From positions 35,347 through 99,346 of the forward strand of contig CAZKFZ010000001.1 of NCBI GenBank assembly GCA_964552475.1: 64,000 nucleotides of DNA, written 5' to 3'. Source of the stretch: an uncultured Candidatus Saccharibacteria bacterium (GTDB lineage Bacteria; Patescibacteriota; Saccharimonadia; CAILAD01; BJGX01). Each line of letters begins with the position of its first letter. Position 1 is the stretch's first letter. The position numbers and the translations under genes were made by a program. Under the pieces are notes generated by a model. The model saw only the letters and a program-made list of their open reading frames with translations. It did not search any database and was not told where the DNA came from. Positions 5,434 through 57,711 of the stretch are shown here, piece by piece.

Positions 5434-6303
5434 ATGACCAATACTACCAACCCCACCAAACAATCTAGTTCAAACCCGTCACAAACACCCACTACCAACC
5501 AAGATGGTAGCTACTCACATCCTTACAAAACTGTTTGTTTGCAAAAAGGTAGAAAAGTAAATCCCATAAGAGACGACATCAACGACGATGGTGGTGAGCC
5601 CCAAATACATCTCTTTTCGGCCGAAGATGCCTATGGCAAGTACGATATTCATAGGTACTATTTTACTTTTGAGCTACCCATTGCCAATCAACAGGTTTTT
5701 ATACGATCGCGTGCCTCTGGCAATCAATTTTTGCGTTTGCCTAGTCGGTCGCAAATATACAATGCCGAAGGCATTTTTGGCGACACCGCCGATCTGTACA
5801 TTGCCAAAGGCCAGCAAAACAACGCTCTCACTATTTTAGATCCCGACACCATGGCCGATATGCTCGAGCTACTTAAGACTTGCGATATAGAAATATATGG
5901 CCGTACTGTTTACATTGTCTACGGTGGTTTTAAAGAGAACGACCCTATAATGACAGAGGTAAAAAAGCTTGCGCAAGAGATGTATCGCGACGCCCAGAGG
6001 CGGCAAGATAAATCTAAGCCCTTGCCAGACGCCCACCTCGTAGAGAACCCACTCAAGTATTCTATTACCACAGCCGGCGGTACCAGCCCGGGCCGAATAG
6101 CCCAACTAGTTGCTATAATAGCCATTGGCTTTGTACTGGGGTTTTTCTTAAGAAAATATTTTGATCGTAGCACCTCTAAGCTAATTTTGCAGATTGTAGG
6201 TATAATATTTGGTATTACTATTATAATTATTGGCGAGAGGTTAGTTCGTCGCAGGCGCAACAAGTTAGATAGAGCTATCAAGCAAGACTTTAGCGATAAA
6301 TAG
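5434..6303 (+). CDS. hypothetical protein with C-terminal TM anchor
   Basis: 289-aa ORF. N-terminal T/S/N/P-rich region, C-terminal hydrophobic helix plus basic tail (RRRRNK). Confidence 0.5.
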   Translation: MTNTTNPTKQSSSNPSQTPTTNQDGSYSHPYKTVCLQKGRKVNPIRDDINDDGGEPQIHLFSAEDAYGKYDIHRYYFTFELPIANQQVFIRSRASGNQFLRLPSRSQIYNAEGIFGDTADLYIAKGQQNNALTILDPDTMADMLELLKTCDIEIYGRTVYIVYGGFKENDPIMTEVKKLAQEMYRDAQRRQDKSKPLPDAHLVENPLKYSITTAGGTSPGRIAQLVAIIAIGFVLGFFLRKYFDRSTSKLILQIVGIIFGITIIIIGERLVRRRRNKLDRAIKQDFSDK

Positions 6304-6364: not shown

Positions 6365-6712
6365 ATGGCAGAGATAAAAGATCTTCAAAAAGAAGTAGTT
6401 AAGTTTCGCGATGAGCGCGATTGGGCGCAATTTCATAACCCCAAAGATTCTGCAATTTCATTAGCGCTAGAGGCCGCCGAGGTACTCGAGCATTTTCAAT
6501 GGAAGAGTGCAGAGGAGATGCAGGCGCATGTAGAAATTAACAAGGTAGATGTGAGCGAAGAGCTAGCCGATGTTTTGTATTGGGTACTACTTATGTGTAA
6601 CGATTTAGATATTGATATATCTGAGGCTTTTATGGCTAAGCTCAAAAAGAATGCCAAGAAATACCCCATTGCTAAAGCAAAAGGAAATCATAAAAAATAT
6701 AGTGAGTTATAG
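6365..6712 (+). CDS. MazG-like nucleotide pyrophosphohydrolase (small all-alpha NTP-PPase)
   Basis: 115 aa. FRDERDWAQFHNPKD...EAAEVLEHFQWKS...ELADVLYWVLLMCNDLDIDI matches the MazG/YpjD-like core (EExxE/D acidic helices). Confidence 0.7.
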   Translation: MAEIKDLQKEVVKFRDERDWAQFHNPKDSAISLALEAAEVLEHFQWKSAEEMQAHVEINKVDVSEELADVLYWVLLMCNDLDIDISEAFMAKLKKNAKKYPIAKAKGNHKKYSEL

Positions 6713-6782: not shown

Positions 6783-9700
6783 ATGCCTGACAACTTACCC
6801 AAAATCAAAACTACGAAAGTAGTGTACCCGCAGATATATTCATATACTCTGCCTGAACATAAAGCCAATGAAGGCTCACAGAAGATAGGCTATACAGAAC
6901 GTAAAGATGTTGATGCTCGTATAAATGAACAAACTCACACTGCTGCAATTAAACTCAAGCCACAAAAGCTGTGGAGTGCACCATCTTTTTTTGCTGATAA
7001 TAAAAATGATTTCAACGACAAAACTTTTCATAAATTCTTAGTAAAAAATGGTGTAGAGAACAGGTTGGATTTGGGTAAGGAGTGGTTCTATTTTGATGGT
7101 ACGCCTGAGAAATCAAAAGAACTGTTTGATGCATTTCGTGAGCAAGGCTTTGCAGCTTTGCAAAATGTCGATAAAAAGATACCCTACTCTCTACGTACTG
7201 AGCAGCAAGCCGCAGTAACAATGGCAAAAAACTATTTTACAAAGCATAGTGGAGGTGAGGTATTATGGAATGCGAAGCCGAGATTTGGTAAAACTCTAGC
7301 TACGTACGATTTAGCCAAACAAATGCAAGCCAGAAAAGTATTGATTGTCACCAACCGACCTGCAATCGCTAACTCATGGCTGGATGATTTTGAGCAATTT
7401 GTCGAAGGTTATATGTTCATTTCTGAAACGTCTTCATTATCAAATCGCACCGCACTTACTAGAGAACAATTTGTCTCAACTTCTGTAGAGCTACCTCAAA
7501 TTACCTTTTTATCACTACAGGATATGAAAGGCTCAAGATATTTTGGTGGTGATTACGAAAAACTCGAGTGGGTTGCTGATCTCGAGTGGGATATGCTAGT
7601 GATCGATGAAGCCCATGAAGGGATCGATACAGAGCGTACTGACGCGGCCTTTGACATAGTCAAGCGAAAATATACACTGCATTTATCTGGCACGCCGTTT
7701 AAGGCTTTGGCAAATAATAAATTTCCTAAAGAAGCTATCTTTAATTGGACGTATCTTGATGAACAGAAAATCAAACAAGCAGAACTAGAAGAAAATGATA
7801 CGGGTGATCACACAGAACTACCAAACCTAAAGCTATATACATATAGAATTTCTGAGATGGTGGCGGATGAGGTGAATGAAGGAATAGAAATTGATAATGA
7901 AACACGTGATTTTGCATTTGATCTCAATGAATTTTTTGCTACTAAAGATCAGAAGTTTGTTCATGAAGAAGATGTACGGGAATTCTTAAAGAATCTTACT
8001 TCTAATACAAAATATCCTTTTTCAACCCCAGATCTACGTGAAGAACTACGCCATACATTTTGGTATGTTGGTAATAGAGTTGACTCAGTAAAAGCTCTTG
8101 AGCAGTTGTTAAAACAAGACGATATCCTTAAAGATTATAAGATAGTAGTAGCAGCCGGTGATGGTAAGTCATTTGAAGAAGAAGAAAATGACTTCTATGG
8201 CAACGAGAAATCGTTCGATAAAGTCAAGAAGGCTATTGCAGAAAACCCCAGAACCATTACTCTTTCTTGCGGTCAGCTCACAGCCGGTGTGACTATTAAA
8301 GAGTGGTCTGCCGTATTGATGCTTACCGATATAAAGACACCCGCTCAATATATGCAGGCAGCTTTTCGTGCTCAAAACCCACACAGATTTTATGAAGACG
8401 GTCAGCTAAAAGCAAAAGAATCTGCTTATCTATTTGACTTTGCACCAACAAGAGTATTGGAAATATACGACCAGTTTGCGAATGGATTGAATGGCAAAGC
8501 TGCTAATGGTGAAATAACAGAATCTGAACGCAAAGAAAATATCAAAGAGTTACTCAACTTTTTTCCTGTAATATCTGAAGATATAGATGGCAAGATGGTA
8601 GAGTTAGATGCAGAGAAGGTCCTTACATTCCCGAATGCACTAGCTGCAGCTGAAATCGTAAAAGCGCGCTTTATGACCAACTTGTTGTTCAATGACAATG
8701 TAAAAGGCGTATTTAGTTTTCCTAAAGAAGTAGAAGATATTCTCGACAAAATGCCAATAGAGAAAAACAAGCGTGCAGAAGTTGCTAAGAGTGTGCTAGA
8801 CCTTGATGATGCGCGTAAGTTTGAGCAGTCAAGAGAAGCCAAGATCAACGAAAACTCAGGTGTAATACTAGGCGAGAAGATATTCCGTTCGAATATCGAA
8901 CGAGTTGTAGACAACGCATTGAATGCCGAAACTACCGAAGAAATAATTGAAACATTGCCTGATAAGATTACCGAGCTAGCTGAGCCACTAATTGCAAAAT
9001 ACAAAGAAGTATACAAAGCAACAAACGCTGAGGTTGAAGAAATGAAAAAAGAAACAGATGAAAAGGTACGGCTAGTCGTTGCTGAATACGAAAGCTCTGA
9101 GATAAAAGACACGGCCAAGCTAAAAGAAAACCTTGCAAATGTAATTGAAAATGACCTGGTTATAGATAGAGTTGAACAAAAAGAAACAGAAGTAGTTGAG
9201 AAAGTTCAGAAGACAAAAGAAGAAGAAGTACGAGACCGTCTACGTTCGTTTACTCGCACTATACCAATGTTTATTATGGCGAACTCAACAAAAGAAACTA
9301 TCAACATAGATAATTTTGATGATCATATAGACGATAATGATTTTGAAGATCTTACCAATATCACTAAAGATGAGTTTTATAAGCTCAGAGATGGCTTTGA
9401 CTATGATGAGAATGGTGAACGCAAAACCTTTGGAGGGGTATTTGATCGCTACAAGTTCAATGCCTCAATAGCTGAGTTTGTAGCTGAGAAGCAAAAACGT
9501 GCTGACTACTTCAATACCCATGAGGATATATTCGAACTCATACCCAATCAGAAAAACAATCAGATATTTACACCTAGAAAAGTCGTGCAGATAATGATTA
9601 ACAGTTTAGAGAAAGAAAGCCCAGAACTTTTCGAAAGAACTGATAGTACTTTTATAGATCTATACATGAAGTCAGGTATGTATATTACTGAGATAGTCAA

Positions 9701-10997
9701 AAAGTTGTTTACCCATACTCGCAAGCACTATAATAGTGATACAGAGTGTTTAAAGCATATATTAGAAAATCAAGTATACGGTTTGGCACCCACCAAGGTG
9801 CTATATGATATTACCCAGTCGTATATATTTGGTTTCGATCAAAATAACAAAGTTAGTAACCACAATTTTGTTGAGCACGACTTACTGCCCGAGGCAAAAG
9901 ACGATACTGCAGCAAAGAAACTCGCACAATTATTTGGAAATGGAGGAAGTATGATGAAATTTGATGCCGTAGTGGGGAATCCACCGTATCAGGAAAATAG
10001 CGGAACAAGTGCCCGAGATGATGCTATATACAATTATTTTTACGACACTGCTGTACAGATAGCTGATAAATACTGCCTGATTTCGCCTGCACGCTTCTTA
10101 TTCAATGCCGGTAGTACCCCAAGACAATGGAATAAAAAAATGCTTAATGACACTCACTTGAAAATTATATCTTATGCGCACGACTCGTCAGCTGTTTTTC
10201 CTAATGTAGGTATTGCGGGTGGTGTAGTGATTATCTTTAGAGATGCTACTCAAGAATATGGAGCAATCGGTACATTTACAAGCTTTGATGAGCTAAATAG
10301 TATTGCGAGTAAAGTGAACACAGCCAGACAAGAAGCACTGACTAATATAATTTCAGGACGGGGTATATATAGGCTAACCCCGCAGCTGCATGAAGAACAC
10401 CCTGAAGTCAAAAATATGCAATCTGCTGGCCACAAAGACGATGTCGGGACGGGTGCATTTGATAAGTTTATCGGAATTATATTTTTTAAATCAAAACCGA
10501 ATGACGGAAAACATTACACACGCGTATACGGTAGGCTGGCCAATGAAAGAACTGATATGTGGATCAGGTCTGACTATATCAATAAACCATATGCAAATGA
10601 TAAGTATAGGGTCATTATTCCTAAAGCTTATGGTACTGGCATAACCGGAGTGGGTGTAACTGCAAGTTTGATTGGAAAACCTTTTGTTATTAAGCCTAAT
10701 GAAGCCTTTACAGAGATGTACATATCCATAGGCGATTTTGAGAGCGAACAAAGTGCTTTAAATGCTTTAAAATACGTAAAATCTAAGTTTGCGCGAGTGA
10801 TGCTAGCTGTCCTTAAGGTTACACAAGACAACACTAAAGAGAAATGGTCAAAAGTTCCACTCCAAGACTTCACATCGAACTCTGATATCGACTGGTCGAA
10901 ATCCATTCCAGAAATCGATCAGCAACTATATGCAAAGTATAAGTTATCAAAAGATGAAATAGAATTTATAGAGTCTCATGTTAAGCCCATGGTGTAG
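6783..10997 (+). CDS. single-polypeptide SNF2/DEAH-box helicase fused to Eco57I-type N6-adenine DNA methyltransferase (Type ISP-like restriction-modification or anti-restriction enzyme)
   Basis: 1404 aa. Helicase motifs: Walker A AKPRFGKT (motif I), VIDEAHEG (motif II DEAH), LHLSGTPF (motif III, SNF2/ResIII-like). A ~250-aa E/K-rich coiled-coil linker follows. MTase motifs: NQIFTPRKVV (motif X, FxxP) and VVGNPPYQ (motif IV NPPY, gamma-class N6-adenine). A ~250-aa C-terminal region could act as a target-recognition domain. The ~150-aa N-terminal domain has a possible GIY-YIG-like stretch (QIYSYTL...KIGYTERKDVDARINEQTH), unconfirmed. Confidence 0.8.
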   Translation: MPDNLPKIKTTKVVYPQIYSYTLPEHKANEGSQKIGYTERKDVDARINEQTHTAAIKLKPQKLWSAPSFFADNKNDFNDKTFHKFLVKNGVENRLDLGKEWFYFDGTPEKSKELFDAFREQGFAALQNVDKKIPYSLRTEQQAAVTMAKNYFTKHSGGEVLWNAKPRFGKTLATYDLAKQMQARKVLIVTNRPAIANSWLDDFEQFVEGYMFISETSSLSNRTALTREQFVSTSVELPQITFLSLQDMKGSRYFGGDYEKLEWVADLEWDMLVIDEAHEGIDTERTDAAFDIVKRKYTLHLSGTPFKALANNKFPKEAIFNWTYLDEQKIKQAELEENDTGDHTELPNLKLYTYRISEMVADEVNEGIEIDNETRDFAFDLNEFFATKDQKFVHEEDVREFLKNLTSNTKYPFSTPDLREELRHTFWYVGNRVDSVKALEQLLKQDDILKDYKIVVAAGDGKSFEEEENDFYGNEKSFDKVKKAIAENPRTITLSCGQLTAGVTIKEWSAVLMLTDIKTPAQYMQAAFRAQNPHRFYEDGQLKAKESAYLFDFAPTRVLEIYDQFANGLNGKAANGEITESERKENIKELLNFFPVISEDIDGKMVELDAEKVLTFPNALAAAEIVKARFMTNLLFNDNVKGVFSFPKEVEDILDKMPIEKNKRAEVAKSVLDLDDARKFEQSREAKINENSGVILGEKIFRSNIERVVDNALNAETTEEIIETLPDKITELAEPLIAKYKEVYKATNAEVEEMKKETDEKVRLVVAEYESSEIKDTAKLKENLANVIENDLVIDRVEQKETEVVEKVQKTKEEEVRDRLRSFTRTIPMFIMANSTKETINIDNFDDHIDDNDFEDLTNITKDEFYKLRDGFDYDENGERKTFGGVFDRYKFNASIAEFVAEKQKRADYFNTHEDIFELIPNQKNNQIFTPRKVVQIMINSLEKESPELFERTDSTFIDLYMKSGMYITEIVKKLFTHTRKHYNSDTECLKHILENQVYGLAPTKVLYDITQSYIFGFDQNNKVSNHNFVEHDLLPEAKDDTAAKKLAQLFGNGGSMMKFDAVVGNPPYQENSGTSARDDAIYNYFYDTAVQIADKYCLISPARFLFNAGSTPRQWNKKMLNDTHLKIISYAHDSSAVFPNVGIAGGVVIIFRDATQEYGAIGTFTSFDELNSIASKVNTARQEALTNIISGRGIYRLTPQLHEEHPEVKNMQSAGHKDDVGTGAFDKFIGIIFFKSKPNDGKHYTRVYGRLANERTDMWIRSDYINKPYANDKYRVIIPKAYGTGITGVGVTASLIGKPFVIKPNEAFTEMYISIGDFESEQSALNALKYVKSKFARVMLAVLKVTQDNTKEKWSKVPLQDFTSNSDIDWSKSIPEIDQQLYAKYKLSKDEIEFIESHVKPMV

Positions 10998-11000
10998 TTA

Positions 11001-11969
11001 GTGGTAGCCAAGCCTAGCATTGATATTTTTGAGAATTCTCTCCGCTCAAGAGGTAATTTACTAGATATATTACTTCTTGATCGTACTACTAAGAAAAATA
11101 TAATTTGGGCTACAGACTCATATAACAAAGCTCAAAAGAATAATAGTTTTTCACCGCGTAGGCAAATAAAACCAGAGCTTGTTACGGGCAAAGTTTATGG
11201 CCAACTTATACAACCAAGAGCTGCAAAACCACTATACGAGCAGCGTAAGCGTACCAAAGACAAAGCGGAGGTTTTCACACCATTACGTGTAGTAGACCAA
11301 ATGAACAAGCATATAGACTGGTCTAGTAGTTATCCACCAAACAAAGATAACTGGCAGGACTATGTGAAACAGCTAAAACTAGAGATAACATGTGGCGAAG
11401 CACCTTTTATGGTAGGAAGGTACAACCCAGATGCTCACACAGGTAAACTGATACAACTATACACTAAGACTGGCAAGCCAAACCGAGTAGGGTTTTTAGA
11501 TCGCAAGCTATACATAGTTTCAAAATATTGCAACAAGCATAGTCAGTGGGTACATTGGGCAAAAGAAGCATTTAAGGCAAGTTATGGATATGAGTGGCAG
11601 GGTGACAATATACTTATAGCTCGTGAGAATTTACTATATACATTTATAGATTTCTATGTAGATAAATTCAAACGTCGCCCATCGTTAAAATTACAAGAAG
11701 AGATTGCAGAGATAATAAGCTGGAATATATTTCAAATGGATGGGCTAAAATATGTAGTACCTATGAGCTGTAAACACATCAATAGAGTAATCCCCGGCGA
11801 GCTTACACTTTTTGGTGAGACACCAGACAGAGTAGAGAAAGACGAATGCGATGGATGTAAGTTACAAAAACCATACAAGCATAACGGTAAGTATGTAAAA
11901 ATAATGGATTGGGAGAAAAATACCACCATAAAGTTCGTTGATCTAATAACACAAAACGACGGCTTGTAA
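11001..11969 (+). CDS. hypothetical Cys-cluster protein translationally coupled to the helicase-MTase gene
   Basis: 322 aa. GTG start 3 nt after the upstream stop. Contains an AEVFTPLRVVDQM motif reminiscent of MTase motif X but no NPPY. C-terminal CKH...C-x2-C cluster (MSCKHIN...DECDGCK). Confidence 0.55.
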   Translation: MVAKPSIDIFENSLRSRGNLLDILLLDRTTKKNIIWATDSYNKAQKNNSFSPRRQIKPELVTGKVYGQLIQPRAAKPLYEQRKRTKDKAEVFTPLRVVDQMNKHIDWSSSYPPNKDNWQDYVKQLKLEITCGEAPFMVGRYNPDAHTGKLIQLYTKTGKPNRVGFLDRKLYIVSKYCNKHSQWVHWAKEAFKASYGYEWQGDNILIARENLLYTFIDFYVDKFKRRPSLKLQEEIAEIISWNIFQMDGLKYVVPMSCKHINRVIPGELTLFGETPDRVEKDECDGCKLQKPYKHNGKYVKIMDWEKNTTIKFVDLITQNDGL

Positions 11970-12962: not shown

Positions 12963-13790
12963 ATGAGCAACGAAACTAGCATAGCATTGTTTAATGACAA
13001 AGAAGTGCGCAAAACTCTGCATAAAAATGAGTGGTGGTTTTGTATTATTGACGTGGTAGAAATACTTACAGATTCTGTTGATGCTGGTGCATATTGGCGC
13101 AAACTTAAGCAAAGGCTTTTACAAGAGGGTGGCGACCAAACCGTGACAAATTGTCACAGTTTGAAAATGACAGCAAAAGACGGCAAACAACGCAACTTTG
13201 ATGCCATGAAGACAGAGGATATACTACGACTTATACAATCTATACCTTCACCCAAGGCCGAGCCGTTTAAGCGTTGGCTAGCACAAGTAGGTAGTGAGAG
13301 AATTGCTGAGATAGATAACCCCGAGCTTGCCACCGAACGTATGCGCAAGCTATATGAAGCCAAGGGGTACTCGAAAGGCTGGATAGATAAGCGTGTGCGA
13401 GGCATCAATGTACGAGACGAGCTAACAAGCGAATGGAAACAACGAGGCGTAAAAGAGGGCAGAGAGTACGCTATACTTACCAACGATATTTCAAAAGCAA
13501 CATTTGGTATGACAGCGACAGAATATAAAAAACATAAGAGCTTACAACTCGAGAATTTGCGTGATCATATGACAGATCTTGAGCTTATATTTACTATGCT
13601 TGGTGAAGCTGCCACTACAGAAATAGCGCGCAATAAAGATGCACAAGGTTTTTGGCAAAATAAAATGGCAGCTAATCAAGGCGGAAAGATAGCGGGTGAC
13701 GCGAGGGGCAAGCTAGAAAAAGAAAGTGGCAAAAGAGTTGTGAGTAAAGGTAACTACTTAGATAACAACGGCGCAAATAAACTCAAATAA
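12963..13790 (+). CDS. DinD/BRO-N-family protein (DNA-damage-inducible protein D-like)
   Basis: 275 aa. KRWLAQVGSERIAEIDNPELATERMRKLYEAKGYSKGWIDKRVRGI and the C-terminal ARNKDAQGFWQNKMAANQGGKIAGDARGKLEKESGKRVV resemble E. coli DinD and phage Bro-N/antirepressor proteins. Confidence 0.65.
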   Translation: MSNETSIALFNDKEVRKTLHKNEWWFCIIDVVEILTDSVDAGAYWRKLKQRLLQEGGDQTVTNCHSLKMTAKDGKQRNFDAMKTEDILRLIQSIPSPKAEPFKRWLAQVGSERIAEIDNPELATERMRKLYEAKGYSKGWIDKRVRGINVRDELTSEWKQRGVKEGREYAILTNDISKATFGMTATEYKKHKSLQLENLRDHMTDLELIFTMLGEAATTEIARNKDAQGFWQNKMAANQGGKIAGDARGKLEKESGKRVVSKGNYLDNNGANKLK

Positions 13791-15896: not shown

Positions 15897-16442
15897 TTAG
15901 TAAACTATTTTGAGCTGGCTGTTTGGCTCAATAACTGTAGTAAGGGCGTTGGGCGACTCTACACCATTAATATAAAAGCGCAATTGCTGTGCTGAGTTGG
16001 TACAAAAGGTTTGCTTGGTACCGGTAACTATACATTTGGTATCTACACTCATAGGTAGAGTAGTAAACAGATCACCCCAGGTAATGTTAGGTTTGGTAAC
16101 TACCACCTGTACCTGGCTAGAGCCTTCGGGCGGTATGTATACATCGGCCGATTTGTTGTGATAACGCGGGTCGGTAAATATGCGGGTTTCACCATTTATA
16201 ATAATTTGAAAAGTAGCTGTATATGGGGTAAATACCGGTACAGTCGTAGGTTGGCTATTGTTTTGGCTGGTGCTGGCTGGTGCAGTTGTTTTAGCTCTTG
16301 TGAGATACAAGTAGCCAGCAAGAACTATAATAATAGAAACAAAGATAGCAAAAGCTACTAAATACTTATTACTACGTCTTTTTTTTGCATTTTTCATACG
16401 GCTAGTATAGCAACAATTGGTAGTACATAAAACTATTGACAT
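15897..16442 (-). CDS. secreted/membrane-anchored hypothetical protein
   Basis: 181 aa. Basic N-terminus, one TM (LVAFAIFVSIIIVLAGYLYL), then a T/P/S-rich linker and a beta-rich C-terminal domain. Confidence 0.5.
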   Translation of the reverse strand: MSIVLCTTNCCYTSRMKNAKKRRSNKYLVAFAIFVSIIIVLAGYLYLTRAKTTAPASTSQNNSQPTTVPVFTPYTATFQIIINGETRIFTDPRYHNKSADVYIPPEGSSQVQVVVTKPNITWGDLFTTLPMSVDTKCIVTGTKQTFCTNSAQQLRFYINGVESPNALTTVIEPNSQLKIVY

Positions 16443-16464
16443 TTACGCTAGTTTGTGCTAGTAT
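16436..16464 (+). promoter_or_regulatory. sigma70-like promoter for the GC-rich gene at 16505
   Basis: TTGACA, 17 nt spacer, TAGTAT. A GAGAGA RBS sits 5 nt before the ATG at 16505. Confidence 0.5.
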
Positions 16465-16504
16465 AGTTAGGCTCAAGTAAATCTACTGAAAGAGAGATGA
16501 GCAC

Positions 16505-16921
16505 ATGAACATCGACATCAGTGATCTCGACCGTGCAGCCGTGTTGGCCGCGCTCTTCAATGGGGCACGGGCTCAGGGCCTCGGTTTCATCGCTCACCAG
16601 GACGGCGACATGACCGTCGAGCAGGCTCAGGCCATCCTCAACTCCGGTACGACCTACTTCGACTACCTGCAGGGTAGGGTGATGAAGGTCGACCTCTCCG
16701 GCGACTCGTTCGACCCCTGGGGCTACGACCGCGACAACGGCGAGGGCGCTGCCCACTCCGTCATCCGCTCGCTGCGGCAGACCGGCTCGGCCTCCAACGT
16801 GGAGACCAGGCATCTGCACCAGCACGGCATGGCCGCCGCAGCCGACGAGCTTCGGGAGCACTACGGCGACGATCTCGCCGACGAGCTGGTCGGCGCCCGC
16901 CGACCGGTCAGCGAAAGCTGA
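16505..16921 (+). CDS. hypothetical protein with high-GC (actinobacterial-like) codon usage
   Basis: 138-aa ORF with strong G/C third-position bias (atc gac ctc gcc ...), in sharp contrast to the ~40% GC neighbours. The translation is protein-like. The antisense ORF 16448-16960 is judged a high-GC artefact. Confidence 0.6.
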   Translation: MNIDISDLDRAAVLAALFNGARAQGLGFIAHQDGDMTVEQAQAILNSGTTYFDYLQGRVMKVDLSGDSFDPWGYDRDNGEGAAHSVIRSLRQTGSASNVETRHLHQHGMAAAADELREHYGDDLADELVGARRPVSES

Positions 16922-17095
16922 CAAAAAGGTTTGCCAGTTCCTTTCAAAAACTGGCTCCACCTAAGTGTTTAATGATATTAAATTGAAAATTTGGGTGGCA
17001 AAAGGTTCCTTGCTGAGTATTAATCTAATGCTAAGTAAGGAGCTTTTAGCAAATAAAAGCTTTGTACCTGTCCCCAAAAAAAAGGAAAATGCAAA

Positions 17096-17539
17096 ATGAG
17101 TCGACGCTCACTCATGCAGTTGTCGTTTGTGGTGTTTACTACCGCGCTCAGCGTGGCGTACTACCACATCTACATGTCGCTCGACACCTTGGCGCGTCAA
17201 GCGCTTATCGAGATGGGCGACACCACCTACTACCCGCCAGAGAATCAGCTCTGGGTAGCTACCAAGATCGTCGCAATCTCAGCTACCTTCGTGGGTGCTG
17301 GCATGGTGGCACTGATGTTTTTTGCCTACCTTCTCATTATGGCAATGTGCAACCAAGAGATCAACTCAGCCATTCGTGACTGCGAAGAACTTGGTGGCAC
17401 GCTCACCTCAGAACCCATTAAGGTGTGCCACTGGTACAGCTACGACTGGTCGCTAACCGGTGAGTTGCCCAGCGGCGAGGAGTACATTCGCTACAACGGC
17501 GACAACTTCTTCGAGGTTTTTCCGTTCGTACACCACTAG
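17096..17539 (+). CDS. hypothetical membrane protein (GC-rich)
   Basis: 147 aa. Three hydrophobic helices then a Cys-containing soluble tail. AGGAAA RBS. Elevated GC. Confidence 0.55.
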   Translation: MSRRSLMQLSFVVFTTALSVAYYHIYMSLDTLARQALIEMGDTTYYPPENQLWVATKIVAISATFVGAGMVALMFFAYLLIMAMCNQEINSAIRDCEELGGTLTSEPIKVCHWYSYDWSLTGELPSGEEYIRYNGDNFFEVFPFVHH

Positions 17540-17557
17540 GGCCAAGTAGGCCCGCAG

Positions 17558-17589
17558 GGCCCCAACAATTGTTGGGGCCCTTTACCTAT
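17558..17589. repeat. copy 1 of a 22-nt perfect palindrome plus conserved tail (terminator-like repeat element)
   Basis: GGCCCCAACAATTGTTGGGGCC followed by CTTTACCTAT. The same 32-nt element with one substitution recurs at 19803-19834. It can fold as a 9-bp stem, AATT loop and T-rich tail. Confidence 0.8.
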
Positions 17590-17597
17590 AAAACATC

Positions 17598-17626
17598 TTG
17601 CAAATTTATAAATTTACTAGTATAAT
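17598..17626 (+). promoter_or_regulatory. sigma70-like promoter for the flotillin-like gene
   Basis: TTGCAA, 17 nt spacer, TATAAT, about 45 nt upstream of the ATG at 17672. Confidence 0.55.
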
Positions 17627-17671
17627 ACTGCATCGGAATGTATTTCCTAAACGAAAGGTCCAACAAAGGAC

Positions 17672-19765
17672 ATGGTACCTTCCAATACATATGTACTAGG
17701 CGCATCTGAGGGACTCCCAATTGTGCCTATTGTGCTTGGAGTTGTTGCATTTATTGCGCTACTTATCGTGGCGCGATTTATCGTAAAGAGCTTCAATATG
17801 ATTGGCCCAGATGAGTTTGGGTTGGTAGAGAAGCGCCTGGGCAAGAAGTTGCCAGAGGGTCAGTTAATCGCTTTTAACGGCGAGGCCGGCTATCAGGCGG
17901 AGTTGCTTCAGCCAGGCTTACGCTTCAAGCTCTGGCCTCTGTATTGGGTCACTAAGTACCCTCTGGTGCAGGTTGCTGCCGGTGAGATTGGTCTTGTTGT
18001 GGCCCAGGCCGGTGGTGATTTACCCCCAGGCTTCAAGTCTGGTGTCTACAAAGACGAGTTTGGTCTTTTTGCCAACCTAGAAACGTTTATTCAGAACGGT
18101 GGACAGCGTGGCGTGCAGAGACAGGTTTTGCCTCCGGGTACAACCCAGCAGATGCACCCTATCGCATTCATTGTACGGACTCGGTCTGAGACTTTCGGCA
18201 CGGTTTTGTCGGAGTCGGCTGAGGAAGTGCTGAATAGAATTCCGCCCGAAAAATTGGTGCCGTTCACTATTGAACCCCAGGGTCATACCGACGTAGTGGG
18301 TGTGGTTACTACACTCGAAGGCGCTCCGGCCAAAGGCATCGCCAGTCGGCTTGGTAACTTCGACGATGTAGTAGAAGCTGAGGCAGCAGATACGGCGGCT
18401 AACACCATCATCACAACGGTGCTTGCGCCCAAAAACAACCTGCACAACAACTACCAGGATTTCCAGGCTTTTCTGGATGCTGGTGGGTGCATTGGCCTCC
18501 AGCACGATCCACTACTTTACGGGCAGTACATGCTAAACCCCTACCTGGTTTCAGTTGAGCTTCGCGAGATGCTCGTTGTGCGCCAGGGCGAGGTTGCTGT
18601 GGTTAAGGCCTACGTAGGCCTACCCACCGAAGATACGTCTGGCGAGGAGTTTAAGTTTGGCTCTATTGTAGAGCCAGGTCATCAGGGTATTTGGTCGGAG
18701 CCACTGCGCACCGGCAAGTACACCCTTAACCCACGCATTTACGAGGCCGAGATTGTACCGACCTCTATCCTTACACTCAACTGGGCCAATGCAACCAGCG
18801 AGGCTCACAACCTCGATGGTTCGTTGTCGTCGATTCACGCCAAGAGCAAGGAAGCGTTCGATTTTAGCATTGATCTGCAGGTGCAGATTCACGTGCCCGA
18901 CACTCGAGCACCCAAGGTTATTAGCATGGTTGGTACCATGCAGAACCTGGTTAATGAGGTTCTGCAGTCGGCGGTAGGCAACTACTTCCGTAATACACTG
19001 CAGTCTCTAGGCGCCGCTGAGTTCATTCAGAAGCGTGACGAAGTCCAGGCCCAGGCCGAGAACTACGTCATGGGTTACCTCTCGCGTTATGAGGTAGAGG
19101 TGCGCGGTGTTTACATCCAGGATGTGGTCTTCCCACCAGAGTTGGTAGAGGTGCTTACAACGCGAGAAATCGCAGCACAGCAGACTCAAACCTACCAGAG
19201 CCAGATGGTAGCCGAGCAGGCTCGAATTGACCTGGAGAACCAAAAGGGCGTGGCCGATGCCCAGGCCGATTTGGCAAGGGCTCGGGTTTCGGTGGATGTT
19301 AACGATGCCGAGGCTCAGGCTGCGGTTAAGCGTGCTGAAGGTGAGGCTGCGGTCGTGCGTCAACGCGGTCAGGCTGCTGCCGATGTTACAAAGCTGACAG
19401 GTGAGGCTGAGGCTGCTGCCACACAAGCTACTGGTTTGGCCGAGGCCAAGGCCACCGAGGCCAAGGGTCTCGCGGTCGCCAAGGGCTTCGATGCTCAGCA
19501 GCGGGCTATTGGCCGTCAGCAGACTGGTTTGGTTGCTGCACTCGAGCAGATTGGCAAGGGTGGAGTGGTACTCACTCCGCAGATTCAGGTTGGTGGTGAC
19601 TCAGTAGGCTCTGGTCTACTAAACACCCTAATGACCTTAGGTGTCGATAAGATGGTGAACGACAACGGCGAGGGTTCGCCCGAGCTGGAGGCCGTTGATG
19701 CGTCGTCCGATGCTGAAGCCTCGGCTGAGCCGAGCGATGAAGCACCGTCAACCAACGAAGACTAA
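17672..19765 (+). CDS. SPFH/band-7 flotillin-family protein
   Basis: 697 aa. N-terminal TM, SPFH core (KSFNMIGPDEFGLVEKRLGK...), long C-terminal A/E/Q-rich repeats (AEAQAAVKRAEGEAAVVRQRGQAAAD...) typical of flotillin. Acidic tail. Elevated GC. Confidence 0.75.
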   Translation: MVPSNTYVLGASEGLPIVPIVLGVVAFIALLIVARFIVKSFNMIGPDEFGLVEKRLGKKLPEGQLIAFNGEAGYQAELLQPGLRFKLWPLYWVTKYPLVQVAAGEIGLVVAQAGGDLPPGFKSGVYKDEFGLFANLETFIQNGGQRGVQRQVLPPGTTQQMHPIAFIVRTRSETFGTVLSESAEEVLNRIPPEKLVPFTIEPQGHTDVVGVVTTLEGAPAKGIASRLGNFDDVVEAEAADTAANTIITTVLAPKNNLHNNYQDFQAFLDAGGCIGLQHDPLLYGQYMLNPYLVSVELREMLVVRQGEVAVVKAYVGLPTEDTSGEEFKFGSIVEPGHQGIWSEPLRTGKYTLNPRIYEAEIVPTSILTLNWANATSEAHNLDGSLSSIHAKSKEAFDFSIDLQVQIHVPDTRAPKVISMVGTMQNLVNEVLQSAVGNYFRNTLQSLGAAEFIQKRDEVQAQAENYVMGYLSRYEVEVRGVYIQDVVFPPELVEVLTTREIAAQQTQTYQSQMVAEQARIDLENQKGVADAQADLARARVSVDVNDAEAQAAVKRAEGEAAVVRQRGQAAADVTKLTGEAEAAATQATGLAEAKATEAKGLAVAKGFDAQQRAIGRQQTGLVAALEQIGKGGVVLTPQIQVGGDSVGSGLLNTLMTLGVDKMVNDNGEGSPELEAVDASSDAEASAEPSDEAPSTNED

Positions 19766-19802
19766 TTCGTACCTAGTACATGTAGAATAAATTGTACCCA
19801 AA

Positions 19803-19834
19803 GGCCCCAACAATTGTTGGGGCCTTTTACCTAT
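19803..19834. repeat. copy 2 of the 22-nt perfect palindrome plus tail; also the likely terminator of the flotillin gene
   Basis: GGCCCCAACAATTGTTGGGGCC followed by TTTTACCTAT, 38 nt after the stop at 19765. Confidence 0.8.
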
Positions 19835-19972
19835 TTAAAATCCCAAAACACAAATATAACTATAATCTACTAGGTATAATGTAAGTTTTATAAAATCAAG
19901 ACTAAACTACCCTGGTCTATTTATAAGTAGTATAATATACATCAATACTAAAACAGTTAAGCTTTGTAAAAA

Positions 19973-20641
19973 ATGTATAATCTAATACCTAAAGAATTTC
20001 TAAGAATAATTTACTCGCAACACAGTAAAGAGTTGGGTAAAAATCTTGCTGGTATAGTGTTGTGCGGTAGTGCAGCCAACCATAGCCTAGATCGTGACTC
20101 CGATATAGACTATGTTGTGATAGTTAAAAATTTAGATAAAAATAGCTACAAAGTCTTGGCTGATTTACGGCTTGCACTAGAAAAGCAACTTGGTTTGCAG
20201 TGCAGTAATACTGTTGTTGAGTATCACTCTATTAGAGATTTAAAAAACAACTATATGTACTTAGACGGTAAAGCAGTACAAGCCTGTATTGACTCAAACG
20301 CACAAAATACTTTACTAAATAAGAGTTATGCCATACCTAAGCTAGATTCTAGTACGGTCCGAAAGTTTTCGGCTCTAGATTTTCATAAGCTAAAAGCTCT
20401 TACTATTAAACAACTAGTAAGAATGTCTAATCCAGCTAGCTACAGCGAGAGACGTAAAGTAATAAAATTAGCTTATATTTTATGTAAAGTTTATGCACAG
20501 GCTAGTACAACTACTCAAGAAAAAGAGTATATGGATAGCATTAGAGACTCACTAATGTCAATAAAAAACAATATTCGCAAATATAATGATAGTCAGCTTT
20601 TTGAGGTTATTGCTAGAATAATTTCTCTAAATCTTCACTAG
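19973..20641 (+). CDS. minimal nucleotidyltransferase (Pol-beta superfamily; KNTase/Lnu-like)
   Basis: 222 aa. LCGSAANHSLDRDSDIDYVVIV is the G[GS]-x(9-13)-D-x-[DE] nucleotidyltransferase signature. Helical C-terminal domain. Confidence 0.6.
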   Translation: MYNLIPKEFLRIIYSQHSKELGKNLAGIVLCGSAANHSLDRDSDIDYVVIVKNLDKNSYKVLADLRLALEKQLGLQCSNTVVEYHSIRDLKNNYMYLDGKAVQACIDSNAQNTLLNKSYAIPKLDSSTVRKFSALDFHKLKALTIKQLVRMSNPASYSERRKVIKLAYILCKVYAQASTTTQEKEYMDSIRDSLMSIKNNIRKYNDSQLFEVIARIISLNLH

Positions 20642-30542: not shown

Positions 30543-32120
30543 ATGATTACACTAAGCAAATCTGAATATATAATGTATCTTAAGCATCCGGCGTGGTTGT
30601 GGCTAAAAAAACATGACAAAAAAATGTTGCCAGAAGTTGACGACAACCTACAGGCGCGTTTTGATGCCGGTAATTTGTTTGAAGAGTATGCCGAGAAACG
30701 TTTCAAAGATGTTTTACGAGTTGGTTTTAATGGCTATCAAGAATATTCGAGTATGCCCGAGCGTACCCAAAAGGCTCTCAAAGATGGCGCCAAAACACTA
30801 TCTCAAGGTAGATTTGAGGCTAATTTTGCTGGTGAGCAGATTACTTGTATTGTAGACATTGTTGAGTTGGTGGGGGATAAAACCTTCGATTTGTATGAGA
30901 TAAAATCTAGCACCAAAGTAAAGCCCGAACATATTGACGACCTGGCTTTTCAGGTAGTTGTGCTAGAGAGCGCCGGTTACAGCGTGAGAAATATTGGTGT
31001 AGTTTATTGCAATAACCAATATGTGCGTAGTGGCGCGCTAGATGAGCTCTCGCTGAGCGTAAAACAAGATGTAACTAGCAAGGTAGAACAAAAGCTTGAG
31101 TCTACCAAACGTAATATTGAGGCCGCACTAACGGTAGTTGGGGCTAGCGACATGCCAGACCCTACGCCTCGTCGCACCAAGATGGGGGCTATTAAAGACT
31201 GGTTAGAAATATATTTAGCCCTTAGACCCACTCAAGATAAATACTCTATTTACAATCTATGCTCGGCCGCGGCCGAACAATTGGGGCAACTAGAAGATTT
31301 GCATATTAGTAGTATTGCCGATATTCCAGATAATTTTGCTCTAAAACCCAAACAAAAAAGACAAGTAGAAGCTACCAAGCAAGCCAGCCCAATCGTAAAT
31401 ATTGCTAAAATTAAAAAATTTATAAATTCTTTGCAGTATCCATTGTACTTTTTAGACTACGAAACCCTCAGCTCTATCGTGCCGCCCTTTGATGGGCTCA
31501 AGCCGTTTGATCAACTACCCTTTCAGTACTCACTACACATTATACAAGAGCCAGGCGGCGATTTGTTGCACAAAGAGTTTTTGCATACACTCGCTACCAA
31601 CCCAGTACCAGAGCTGCTACAACAATTGCAAGCCGACATTGGTGAGTCTGGCACAGTTTTGGTATGGTGGGAGGGCTTTGAGAAGAGCTGTAATGAGCTA
31701 ATGGGTAAACTTATGCCCGAGCACCTTACTTTTTTAGAAGATGTTAATAGTCGAGTAATTGACTTAATGAAACCATTTAGTGAAGGTTACTATATAGATC
31801 GCGATTTTATGGGCTCGGCTAGTATCAAAAATGTTCTGCCAGTAATTGCGCCCGAACTAAGCTACAAAGACCTAGACATACAAGAGGGTGGCTCGGCCCA
31901 AAGACTATGGATGCAAGCCGTTTACGAAGATAAGTTCGACCAATCAGAGAAAGCAAAGCTAATGGAGAGCTTACGGCAGTATTGCGAGCTAGACACCTAC
32001 GCAATGGTACGAATTTTTGAGTTTTTAGTTGCCTTAGATGTTGGTGGTACTAAACCTAGAGGTGACTCTAGTGTAGGTCAAGTTACTAATCAAGATTTTG
32101 AACAACAACAGCTCTTTTAG
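30543..32120 (+). CDS. DUF2779-family protein (PD-(D/E)xK nuclease-like N-terminus plus C-terminal domain)
   Basis: 525 aa. LSKSEYIMYLKHPAWLWL start, DIVELVGDKTFDLYEIKSS (D...EIK nuclease-like motif), and C-terminal YPLYFLDYETLSSIVPPFDGLKPFDQLPFQYSLHI, all characteristic of DUF2779. Confidence 0.5.
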   Translation: MITLSKSEYIMYLKHPAWLWLKKHDKKMLPEVDDNLQARFDAGNLFEEYAEKRFKDVLRVGFNGYQEYSSMPERTQKALKDGAKTLSQGRFEANFAGEQITCIVDIVELVGDKTFDLYEIKSSTKVKPEHIDDLAFQVVVLESAGYSVRNIGVVYCNNQYVRSGALDELSLSVKQDVTSKVEQKLESTKRNIEAALTVVGASDMPDPTPRRTKMGAIKDWLEIYLALRPTQDKYSIYNLCSAAAEQLGQLEDLHISSIADIPDNFALKPKQKRQVEATKQASPIVNIAKIKKFINSLQYPLYFLDYETLSSIVPPFDGLKPFDQLPFQYSLHIIQEPGGDLLHKEFLHTLATNPVPELLQQLQADIGESGTVLVWWEGFEKSCNELMGKLMPEHLTFLEDVNSRVIDLMKPFSEGYYIDRDFMGSASIKNVLPVIAPELSYKDLDIQEGGSAQRLWMQAVYEDKFDQSEKAKLMESLRQYCELDTYAMVRIFEFLVALDVGGTKPRGDSSVGQVTNQDFEQQQLF

Positions 32121-32247: not shown

Positions 32248-34074
32248 ATGAGTGACCAGACCCAAGACCCTCAAAAAATACGCAATATCGCCATTATTGC
32301 TCACGTAGACCATGGAAAAACCACCTTGGTAGATGGGTTATTAAAGCAATCGCAAACTTTTAGAGACAACCAAGCCGAAATGAGCCAAAGTCTCATAATG
32401 GACAGTGGCGACCAAGAGCGCGAGCGTGGCATTACTATTACTGCTAAAACTACTGCAGTGGTTCACGATCGCTATAGAATAAACATCATCGATACGCCTG
32501 GCCACGCTGATTTTAGTGGCGAGGTAGAACGTACCCTAAATATGGCCGACGGTTGTTTGCTAATAGTCGATGCCCAAGAAGGACCAATGCCACAAACCAA
32601 GTTTGTATTGCAAAAGGCTTTAGTGGGTAATCTTAAACCCATAGTAGTAATTAATAAAATAGATAAGCCAGGTAGTAGAGTAGCTGAGGTAGAAGAAGAG
32701 CTTGCCGACTTATTTCTAGAACTTGCCGTGCACGAAGATCAACTGCATTACCCTGTGTATTATGCTATAAGTCGTGAGGGTAAGGCTTGGCATGAGATCC
32801 CTAGTGACGTTAACACAGAGGCCAATTTAGATGTGTTATTTGATGCTATTGTAGAGCAGGTGCCAGCCCCAAAAGTAGAGTTAGATGGGCCTTTTCAAAT
32901 GCTTGTAACAGCACTGCGCTGGGATAACTTCAAAGGGAAATATGCTATTGGTAGAGTAAATAGGGGTAGCGTAAAGCCAGGTGAGGGAGTTGTGCTGTGT
33001 AAAAAAGACGGTTCGAAAACCAAAACTAGCATCGACAATGTATTTATAAGTAGAGGTCTTACCAGTGTAGAAGCCAAGGTCGCAATTGCTGGTGATATTG
33101 TACAGCTTACAGGTGTAGCCGATGCTCAAATTGGCGAAACTATTGCCGATATTAATAAACCCCAAGCTCTGCCAGTGCTAGAGGTAGAAGCCCCAACTCT
33201 CAAAATATATATAGGCCCCAACACTAGCCCTGTAAAAGGCACAGAAGGCGAGTTTACTACGTCACGCCAAATAGGCGATAGGCTACAAAAAGAACTCGAA
33301 ACCAATGTGGGCTTGCAAATAGAGCCAAGCGATATTGGGTATTTGGTGAGCGGTAGGGGCGAGCTGCACCTAAGCGTGCTTATTGAATCGCTAAGACGAG
33401 AAGGATTTGAGTTAGAGGTGGGTCGCCCGCAAGTGGTAACCAAACAAGAAGACGGCAAAACTATGGAGCCTGTAGAGGAGCTGATTATTGAAGTTCCGCC
33501 AGAAAATGTGGGTACAGTTCAAATGGAGTTGGGTACCCGTAGAGCCACACTAAAAGAACAATTTAGTAGCTCAAAAGGCGTATCAAAACTCGTGTACGAA
33601 CTACCTACTCGCGCGCTTCTTGGTCTGCGTAATGTACTAATGACTACCACTAAAGGTGCTGCGGTAATAAATAGTCTAATGATAGGTTACACCGAGCAGA
33701 CACCGGCACTCAAACAACTACGTAATGGTGCGCTTATATCTTTTGAGGCCGGTAGCGCCACAGCTTACTCACTACAAAAAGTAGAGGAGCGTGGTACATG
33801 TTTTGTAGAGCCAGGCCAAAAAGTCTATGCTGGGCAAATAATTGGTCTTAATAACCGCAGTGAAGATATGGAAATTAACATCTGTAAGGGTAAACAACTA
33901 ACCAATATGCGTACTAGCTCTAGTGACGGAGTGGTACAACTTATGCCAGCGGTAAAAATGAGCTTAGAGGAATGTATTGATTTTATAGAAGACGATGAAC
34001 TTTTAGAGGTCACACCAAAGTCGTTACGACTACGTAAGCGCGAACTCGACCCCAACAAGCGCAAACGCAAATAG
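32248..34074 (+). CDS. typA: translational GTPase TypA/BipA
   Basis: 608 aa. [20 protein letters not shown] (G1), DTPGHADF (G3), NKIDKP (G4). Collinear with BipA over its whole length. Confidence 0.9.
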
Positions 34075-56898: not shown

Positions 56899-57711
56899 TT
56901 GAAAAAACCGAAAGGCGAAAAAGTGCCTACCAACAAATTAATTCGCGGTGAGGTTTTTAGAGGATCTACAGACGAGTGCTTTAAGGCATTTGTGAATAGA
57001 TTTGATAAGCCTCGCGAACAAAAGCTGTTTGCTCAGCTAATTAATGTTAGCTACCACTCTACATTAAGAGTATGGATTCGTAATGGTTTCAACACTCAGG
57101 GTGAGATTCTGTTGCGTGTTCGCGTAGTGCTAGAGCTATTTGGCTACAATTGTACGGAATGGGAAGATCTTGCCGACGAAGACAGAATAATTGCCTATGC
57201 AGTTGGTCTTGGTGTGTGTAGTGCTGCAGATGCTAGTGAGGCTCTAGCCTATGCTAGAACTAAGCAGTATCTAAGGTACATCCTACAAAGAACTGGACGC
57301 ACCAAAGACAAGGACGAGTTGGCTAAAGTATATGCTGAGATTGTCTTTTCAACAACTCAGCTACACATCGCCGAGTTTTGGGATAATGATGTAAAACAAA
57401 GCCCGGTGCTCTATAGAGCTAAGCCAGTTGCAACTAATGACGAATCAACTCTTATCGTATCTGCCCCAGACGAGACAACTCTATCTGTAGCAGAAGTTGA
57501 GAATGTCTTTGTTGCTTCGGTACAGGCTCTTTTACCTCTGGCTCGCTACTTCAATAGCGACGCGGTGAGCGAAGAGCAGCGTCGAGGCTTAAGAAAACGC
57601 GTAGGTTACGACGGTATTAGCGAGCTTAGTAGCTTGTTTGATTCACTCAGTAACGAACAAAGTCGTCGCAAGATTCGTGCCAACAGGAGCGAAGAGAGGA
57701 TTGTACGCTGA
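56899..57711 (+). CDS. HTH (XRE-like) domain protein, translationally coupled to a GHKL ATPase
   Basis: 270 aa. QKLFAQLINVSYHSTLRVWIRNG looks like a helix-turn-helix. TTGACT, 17 nt spacer, TAATAT promoter-like element at 56832-56860. Stop overlaps the next start (TGATG). Confidence 0.5.
   Translation: MKKPKGEKVPTNKLIRGEVFRGSTDECFKAFVNRFDKPREQKLFAQLINVSYHSTLRVWIRNGFNTQGEILLRVRVVLELFGYNCTEWEDLADEDRIIAYAVGLGVCSAADASEALAYARTKQYLRYILQRTGRTKDKDELAKVYAEIVFSTTQLHIAEFWDNDVKQSPVLYRAKPVATNDESTLIVSAPDETTLSVAEVENVFVASVQALLPLARYFNSDAVSEEQRRGLRKRVGYDGISELSSLFDSLSNEQSRRKIRANRSEERIVR

Follow-up and report, generated by a model that had tools for sequence, protein, structure and literature searches.

The 64,000-nucleotide stretch analyzed here, which we call the window, comes from contig CAZKFZ010000001.1 of an uncultured Candidatus Saccharibacteria bacterium and carries a two-gene operon: an open reading frame (ORF) at 6783-10997 that encodes a helicase-methylase of 1404 amino acids, and a second ORF at 11001-11969 whose 322-amino-acid product is the subject of this report—we refer to it as P. 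The gene for P begins 3 nucleotides past the stop codon of the upstream ORF (TAG at 10995-10997) and lies in the same frame; no terminator-like site was seen between the two. The explanation that we favor, with moderate confidence, is that P is the separately encoded S-adenosylmethionine (SAM)-binding half of a split gamma-class (Eco57I/TaqI-like) N6-adenine methyltransferase (MTase) in a Type ISP-like restriction-modification (RM) system. A first-pass annotation of this DNA had described P as a coupled partner of the upstream enzyme with an MTase-like FTP motif, a C-terminal Cys/His cluster, and no NPPY; the ORF and both sequence features are real, and they are listed here with the other motifs of P.

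11001-11969, forward strand: gene for P, 322 amino acids, GTG start
11265-11303, forward strand: motif X, AEVFTPLRVVDQM, amino acids 89-101, with EVFTP at amino acids 90-94
11379-11408, forward strand: variant of motif I, LEITCGEAPF, amino acids 127-136, on strand beta-1 (strand E126-130 in the models)
11418-11507, forward strand: insertion between beta-1 and beta-2, with invariant R140, Y141, R162, G164, D167, and K169
11580-11633, forward strand: motif II, SYGYEWQGDNILIARENL, amino acids 194-211, on strand beta-2 (E194-198 in the models), with the ribose-binding acid E198
11721-11747, forward strand: motif III, WNIFQMDGL, amino acids 241-249, on strand beta-3 (E243-245 in the models)
11760-11912, forward strand: CCCH zinc-knuckle insertion (predicted zinc site), C257, C283, C286, and H294, between motif III and the expected position of motif IV

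The motifs were assigned from established knowledge of M.TaqI and HsdM together with fold evidence, and residue conservation was counted over 215 diverse members of the P family. Motif X, which follows a helical region at the N-terminus, has E90, V91, F92, T93, and P94 in 202-210 of the 215 relatives, with E90, T93, and P94 kept in about 98%. A SAM-binding glycine loop had been reported as absent from P; this was wrong, as LEITCGEAPF is its equivalent—a variant of the SAM loop in which the first glycine is kept and the second is an alanine. The variant is nearly invariant (C131 and E133 in all 215 sequences; E128, G132, and P135 in 214), with the family consensus L127-E-x-x-C-G-E-A-P-[YF]136, and we take it to resemble LEPACAHGPF of M.TaqI. 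In motif II, position 198 is acidic in every sequence (183 E, 32 D), and G201, D202, and R208 are found in all 215; the consensus is Y195-G-[YF]-[ED]198-x-Q-G-D202, then A207-R208-E209-N210 (E209 in 174, N210 in 188). Motif III is similarly constrained, with N242 and Q245 in all 215, M246 in 214, D247 in 211, and G248 in 209. E128, E/D198, and D247, the three acidic SAM contacts of an MTase N-terminal half (N-half), are invariant or nearly so. P254 is invariant or nearly so as well, W304 is kept in 213 sequences, and the six invariant residues of the insertion between beta-1 and beta-2 are each kept in 212-215, which may point to a contact with DNA or with a partner protein. The basic residues R73, K76, R84, R140, R162, K169, and R208 are invariant outside the SAM motifs. 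The catalytic motif IV, as NPPY or DPPY, is absent. P has the fold and all the N-half cofactor-contact motifs of a gamma-class N6-adenine MTase, and is predicted to bind SAM.

The Cys/His cluster of P (C257-K-H259, then C283-D-G-C286, then H294) had been proposed as a zinc knuckle with CKH among its ligands. The metal-type cluster stands: C257, C283, C286, and H294 co-occur in about 73% of the 215 sequences (pattern C?CCH) and are jointly absent in the rest. The CKH ligand does not; H259 is variable, kept in 16%, and for this reason the ligand set is taken as CCCH. In the predicted structures the knuckle region has a low predicted local distance difference test (pLDDT) score, as might be expected for a metal site modeled without its metal. 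The CCCH knuckle is probably a structural insertion between motifs III and IV rather than a catalytic center.

All the remaining parts of the system—nuclease, helicase, MTase, and target-recognition domain (TRD)—lie within the upstream 1404-amino-acid protein, which we divide as follows.

6783-7172, forward strand: T5orf172 domain (GIY-YIG superfamily), candidate nuclease, amino acids 1-130 (PF10544, E=1.4e-5)
7173-8642, forward strand: superfamily 2 (SF2) helicase/translocase (ResIII), amino acids 131-620 (PF04851, E=3.1e-14)
8643-9518, forward strand: "Mid", a helical linker and coupler-like region, amino acids 621-912, recovered in relatives and without a family match
9519-9950, forward strand: "XIII", a compact second N-half with non-canonical motifs, amino acids 913-1056
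9951-10997, forward strand: "Q", the catalytic C-terminal half (C-half) with the TRD, amino acids 1057-1404 plus the stop codon, starting at MKFDAVVGNPPYQ and running from motif IV onward

The T5orf172 match scores 25.9 bits against a cut-off of 20 and is shared by 29 of 30 homologues; of the 142 helicase proteins whose N-terminus is intact, 139 have a T5orf172-like domain. One member of the T5orf172 family, ICP1 Gp88/Odn, is a documented nuclease (PMC8263062), and Iyer et al. place T5orf172 among the restriction nucleases of adenine-modifying systems (PMC4738411); the domain of the 1404-amino-acid protein would, by this analogy, be an active nuclease. The SF2 motor is followed by a gamma-class MTase and then a TRD. 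Q has its GNPPY at amino acids 1065-1069 (NPPY at 1066-1069), matches Pfam Eco57I (E=5.9e-21), and is covered by the PADLOC model PDLC03375, "MTase_II", over amino acids 1058-1403 (profile positions 9-348 of 348).

XIII carries motifs X' (IFTPRKVV, within NQIFTPRKVV at amino acids 925-934), I' (FIDLYMKSGMY), II' (VYGLAPT), and III' (FVEHDLL); its family consensus runs ..TP..V.., ILEINSKSGLY, NIYxxCxS, ..DL.., and MKFDAVVGNPPYQ. There is no acid at the motif II acid position, and in a HMMER alignment to DrdV the conserved lysine of XIII stands opposite the first glycine of DPATGTG, the GxG loop. Judged from its sequence by the usual criteria, XIII appears to be impaired in binding SAM, but relatives conserve it both with Q attached and without. 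That it acts simply as an adaptor for the helicase is made less likely by helicase-less loci in which P is followed by an XIII-Q gene (L132).

Fold searches with P returned only gamma-class N6-adenine MTases, in agreement with the MTase origin suggested at first reading. Modeled alone, P forms exactly three Rossmann strands, beta-1 to beta-3, with no TRD (pLDDT 65.2; predicted template modeling score, pTM, 0.68). When window-P was joined to window-Q in the order of natural fusions, with an alignment of natural fusions, P-only homologues, and Q-only homologues, the chimera was modeled as a full seven-strand class I fold (pLDDT 80.9, pTM 0.76), and loops of P that are disordered in the P-alone model became ordered. 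The significant matches in a viral structure library were almost only adenine MTases. The predicted structures thus show P and Q to be compatible as two halves of one fold.

Natural proteins are divided at the same point. Among the 150 best family representatives (50%-identity clusters), 45 are P-Q fusions (about 30%); these proteins are 630-710 amino acids long, with P running straight into MKFD..GNPPYQ and the same C-terminal module, an order that restores motifs X-I-II-III-IV on one polypeptide. Free Q proteins of 339-348 amino acids have their first residues exactly at MKFD..GNPPYQ, and helicase proteins without Q, which terminate in XIII, end exactly before the MKFD point. In P0216, a truncated P-Q protein, Pfam N6_Mtase aligned contiguously across motif III of P and the NPPY of Q; this was the only real match when 36 P members were compared with Pfam, and P0216 is a protein that extends into the beginning of Q. 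The natural P-Q fusions P0297, P0303, P0305, P0310, and P0311 lack the zinc knuckle.

Phages carry some of these arrangements. Fusobacterium phage FNU4 encodes a P-Q fusion, in whose vicinity there is no helicase gene, and Tenacibaculum phage PTm1 has Q, a helix-turn-helix (HTH) gene, and P in a row. PTm1 was considered as a clean case of Q and P alone and was rejected as such, since a frame-broken XIII lies just upstream of its Q (L012, 5095-5600). The annotated PTm1 MTase, gp277, starts at MKFD..NPPY and is, as annotated, only half a MTase; its copy of P, gp279, is annotated as "restriction endonuclease subunit M". The closest 50%-cluster representative of P, P0121 (552 amino acids), consists of P and a 235-amino-acid C-terminal extension that includes VDYVLPEIAIEVKE, a stretch like D..ExK; Pfam gives no match for the extension, which may be a nuclease domain captured from a neighboring gene.

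We mapped the modules by iterative profile searches over the stop-to-stop ORFs of all fetched loci, about 140 of which are non-redundant. The recurrent layouts are given here, and rarer variants also exist; a comma separates genes, a hyphen joins modules of one protein, and Hel stands for the helicase.

P, Hel-XIII-Q: 28 loci
Hel-XIII-Q, P (the window type): 27 loci
P, Q, Hel-XIII: 17 loci
P, Hel-Q: 12 loci
P-Q, Hel-XIII: 10 loci
P, Hel-XIII, Q: 3 loci

Each system has one Q—fused to XIII, fused behind P, or free—so that there are two N-halves, P and XIII, for one C-half. P nearly always adjoins Q-bearing genes, and the reverse search, with an XIII-Q profile, found P in 41 of 50 non-redundant loci; the nine loci without P comprise five cut by a contig end, two truncated remnants, and two that are apparently intact (L098, L151). 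The linkage of P to the upstream helicase-methylase, which the first-pass annotation had proposed from this one locus, is therefore conserved in both search directions.

The modules differ in how fast they diverge and with what. Against the window copy, mean identity falls from 58% (P) through 46% (helicase), 41% (T5orf172), and 39% (Q) to 34% (XIII)—as the most conserved module, with every N-half SAM-contact motif retained, P does not fit the earlier description as degenerate. Pairwise identities are correlated inside the T5orf172-helicase-XIII block (Spearman 0.56-0.71), and those of the catalytic half of Q with those of the TRD (0.38). However, XIII and the adjacent catalytic half of Q give a Spearman coefficient of 0.04 although they are contiguous in one polypeptide (49 loci), and P gives 0.07-0.17 with any other module, the value with the TRD being 0.07. 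Because these identities are uncorrelated, we conclude that three units are exchanged independently of one another and that a breakpoint lies where motifs III and IV join; in the window, the XIII/Q joint at 9948-9953 behaves as a recombination breakpoint. P is about 50-70% identical across systems whose Q/TRD is only 26-69% identical. Judged by sequence, then, Q resembles a specificity cassette, and P has the character of a universal subunit. P is 83% identical between an E. faecium plasmid, which has an XIII-Q fusion, and E. faecalis, which has Q as a gene of its own; this implies that P does the same job in both layouts.

A small C-protein-like HTH gene heads about 14 related operons (L011, L045, L049-L051, L055, L059, L069, L071, L077, L085, L091, L019, and L023), whichever main gene comes first; the window has none. 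This gene lies directly before P in about a dozen loci. An argument from C-proteins that P is the toxic gene of the system was rejected, since the HTH gene heads the operon whichever gene leads.

In the explanation that we favor, the system would be built from three modules: the T5orf172 nuclease-SF2 helicase-coupler-XIII block; Q, the NPPY half with its TRD; and P. Q would be an exchangeable specificity cassette, which in the window is fused behind XIII while P is supplied from the gene 3 nucleotides downstream. P would dock on Q to give a SAM-competent active site and an active N6-adenine MTase, so that protective methylation of host DNA would depend on P. The T5orf172-helicase protein would carry out translocation and cleavage in a Type ISP-like manner, and XIII, in which the motif II acid and the first motif I glycine are missing, would be a helicase-tethered pseudo-half.

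Several observations count against this explanation. Q of the window is covalently joined to XIII, whose spacing is canonical and from which completion of the fold in cis would be expected. The XIII-Q genes of L098 and L151 carry the same KSG motif with no P nearby, and XIII-Q may be self-sufficient. The zinc knuckle is present in 71 of 76 stand-alone P proteins from window-type loci versus 3 of 28 where Q is free or fused to P, counts that are not corrected for phylogeny; a stand-alone P could thus be a domain that caps itself and remains unpaired with Q. The chimera is artificial and its alignment held natural P-Q fusions, which makes it a measure of compatibility rather than of assembly. 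In a profile-profile comparison of P with XIII-Q (hhalign), only motif X paired with X' (E=0.044), and so P and XIII are not demonstrable as paralogues by sequence. Finally, P falls below the threshold of every curated MTase family.

The first-pass annotation had also offered P as a regulator of the upstream enzyme, and of its functional suggestions this is the one that is still a live rival. Here XIII-Q would be a complete, active MTase, and P an accessory or regulatory pseudo-half: a SAM-binding half-domain, capped by its zinc knuckle, that attaches to the enzyme to sense the cofactor or to help assembly, and that might, for instance, render restriction or methylation dependent on SAM. In METTL3-METTL14 and DNMT3A-DNMT3L, inactive partners likewise support active ones. 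XIII and Q are contiguous at canonical spacing, the Q-proximal part of XIII and Q together match Pfam Eco57I from end to end (amino acids 996-1139, profile 1-171), and regions X', I', and IV of XIII-Q also align with DrdV. The XIII-Q genes without P and the enrichment of the knuckle in stand-alone P fit such a role, and conserved SAM contacts would be required of a sensor as well. However, XIII has neither a motif II acid nor the first motif I glycine, P is fused directly to Q in 30% of family clusters, free Q genes adjoin P, and near-identical P proteins serve both layouts; moreover, in the 27% of members that have no knuckle, a lone half-sheet of three strands would not be expected to be stable. 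We regard a regulatory P as possible but clearly less probable than a P that completes Q. A further idea, which we hold to be rather unlikely, combines the two N-halves: one Q might alternate, methylating when paired with the SAM-competent P, and, when paired with the SAM-incompetent, tethered XIII, only recognizing its site and licensing translocation and cleavage. If this were true, modification or restriction would be chosen by swapping half of an enzyme fold, and the motif III/IV break would also be the recombination joint that moves Q cassettes between systems.

Two other roles had been suggested for P, and we consider both very improbable. As a restriction endonuclease subunit, P would cut through its Cys/His region, in the manner of an HNH nuclease, or through the acids D167, E198, and D202. 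The names given to its relatives in NCBI and phage records, the HTH gene directly before P in about a dozen loci, and the D..ExK-like extension of P0121 can be cited for this role; however, the structural neighbors of P are all MTases, and no significant match to a nuclease fold or family (PD-(D/E)XK, HNH, GIY-YIG, PLD) was found in P. The supposed catalytic acids are standard SAM-contact positions, the Cys/His module is dispensable (absent in about 27%), the HTH gene is not specific to P, and a nuclease domain, T5orf172, already sits at the N-terminus of nearly all partner proteins—on these grounds we rejected P as a nuclease. As an MTase-derived DNA-recognition module, P would set or extend the specificity of the upstream enzyme. 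Its many invariant basic residues outside the SAM motifs would suit this task, as would a zinc knuckle of a kind that often contacts nucleic acid; yet specificity modules vary between systems, and here the variable specificity part is Q with its TRD, while P stays nearly constant across differing Q and is uncorrelated with the TRD.

The endonuclease names deserve comment given the size of the family. A collection of 5.8 billion proteins returned more than 8000 clusters (90% identity) for P, and the relatives listed there are 65-85% identical, come largely from Patescibacteria and metagenomes, and are unnamed or called "restriction endonuclease". An exhaustive search clustered at 50% identity gave 1434 representatives, and a scan of one genome per species found relatives in at least 583 genomes from many phyla (Patescibacteria to Firmicutes), with others in phages and plasmids. 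The names used for these relatives are "restriction endonuclease", "type II restriction endonuclease", and "restriction endonuclease subunit M"; they appear to be derived from context, since no NCBIfam model matches P. P has no match in Pfam or PHROGs either, and searches against PDB sequences, with the single sequence or a profile, gave nothing useful. It does match the REBASE-derived PADLOC model PDLC03390, "MTase_II" (E=2.6e-88, 294 bits). With PDLC03375 for Q, each half thus already has its own catalogue entry as a putative Type II MTase; the two models are silent on half-enzyme status and on the helicase-linked organization in three modules.

The closest known architecture is that of the Type ISP enzymes LlaGI and LlaBIII (PDB 4XQK), which consist of one polypeptide each and have a nuclease of the Mrr type (PMC3553950, PMC2790908). 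The system described here differs in that its nuclease is T5orf172 rather than Mrr-family PD-(D/E)XK, that the MTase N-half of the big protein is non-canonical, and that a separate gene, P, with a canonical N-half, accompanies the big protein in nearly all loci. P shares with Eco57I, M.TaqI, and HsdM the motifs X, I, II, and III in order and the usual acidic SAM contacts; unlike in those enzymes, the fold is interrupted after motif III, the part from motif IV onward belonging to another gene or module, and most P members have a CCCH knuckle at the break. Two-polypeptide MTases are known among the C5-cytosine enzymes—M.AquI and M.EcoHK31I each make one fold from two genes—but their break point is different, and neither a helicase-nuclease partner nor a duplicated N-half is known for them. 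The DnmA(YeeA)-YeeB-YeeC system of Bacillus subtilis and Vibrio, found in defense islands, has the same parts list encoded together: an MmeI/Eco57I-like adenine MTase, an SF2 helicase, and a T5orf172 protein (PMC9973331). The likeness is one of described parts; there the parts are three separate proteins, the MTase is one intact polypeptide, and no P-like half is described (PMC9973331). We found no description of such a half-MTase subunit or system in the literature, of which our coverage was partial.

Recognizing P as a half-MTase would correct its naming as a "restriction endonuclease" and change the typing of such loci. It points to an RM architecture with a divided MTase fold, in which the NPPY half and the specificity domain move together as one shuffled cassette and the SAM-binding half is a conserved, universal subunit. 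With two N-halves per C-half, the system poses the puzzle of how restriction enzymes coupled to a helicase keep self-protection apart from attack. In our opinion, it is of interest mainly for this pair of N-halves, for the split fold, and for the shuffled cassette of catalytic and specificity parts.

The window is chromosomal rather than of phage origin, as judged from a TypA/BipA gene at 32248-34074; no tRNA genes were found in it. GC content is about 38% across the operon stretch and 42-52% in the flanks, and promoter and terminator scans around the operon did no better than on shuffled sequence. Directly upstream of the RM operon, on the same strand, lie a gene for a MazG-like nucleotide pyrophosphatase (6365-6712; PF12643, E=8.5e-19) and a 289-amino-acid gene without a family (5434-6303), an arrangement shared only with three near-identical metagenome contigs. 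Downstream of the operon there are small genes to which no function was assigned. A Bro-N domain protein is encoded 1 kb downstream of P (12963-13790) and matches phrog_15286 (E=8.8e-96), an uncharacterized phage family; its surroundings are otherwise chromosomal. The region 16000-20000 has a GC content of 0.50-0.52 compared with 0.38 at the operon, and holds a gene for a 697-amino-acid SPFH/Band_7 protein (17672-19765). A DUF2779 protein is encoded at 30543-32120, about 19 kb from the operon; DUF2779 genes also occur 3-6 kb from homologous operons in two Patescibacteria genomes (L004, 12339-13823; L008, 14720-16165), where DUF2130 genes are recurrent as well. Further away, at 57711-59378, a 555-amino-acid protein with an HATPase_c_3 domain (E=4.5e-12) may be the product of a defense-type gene.

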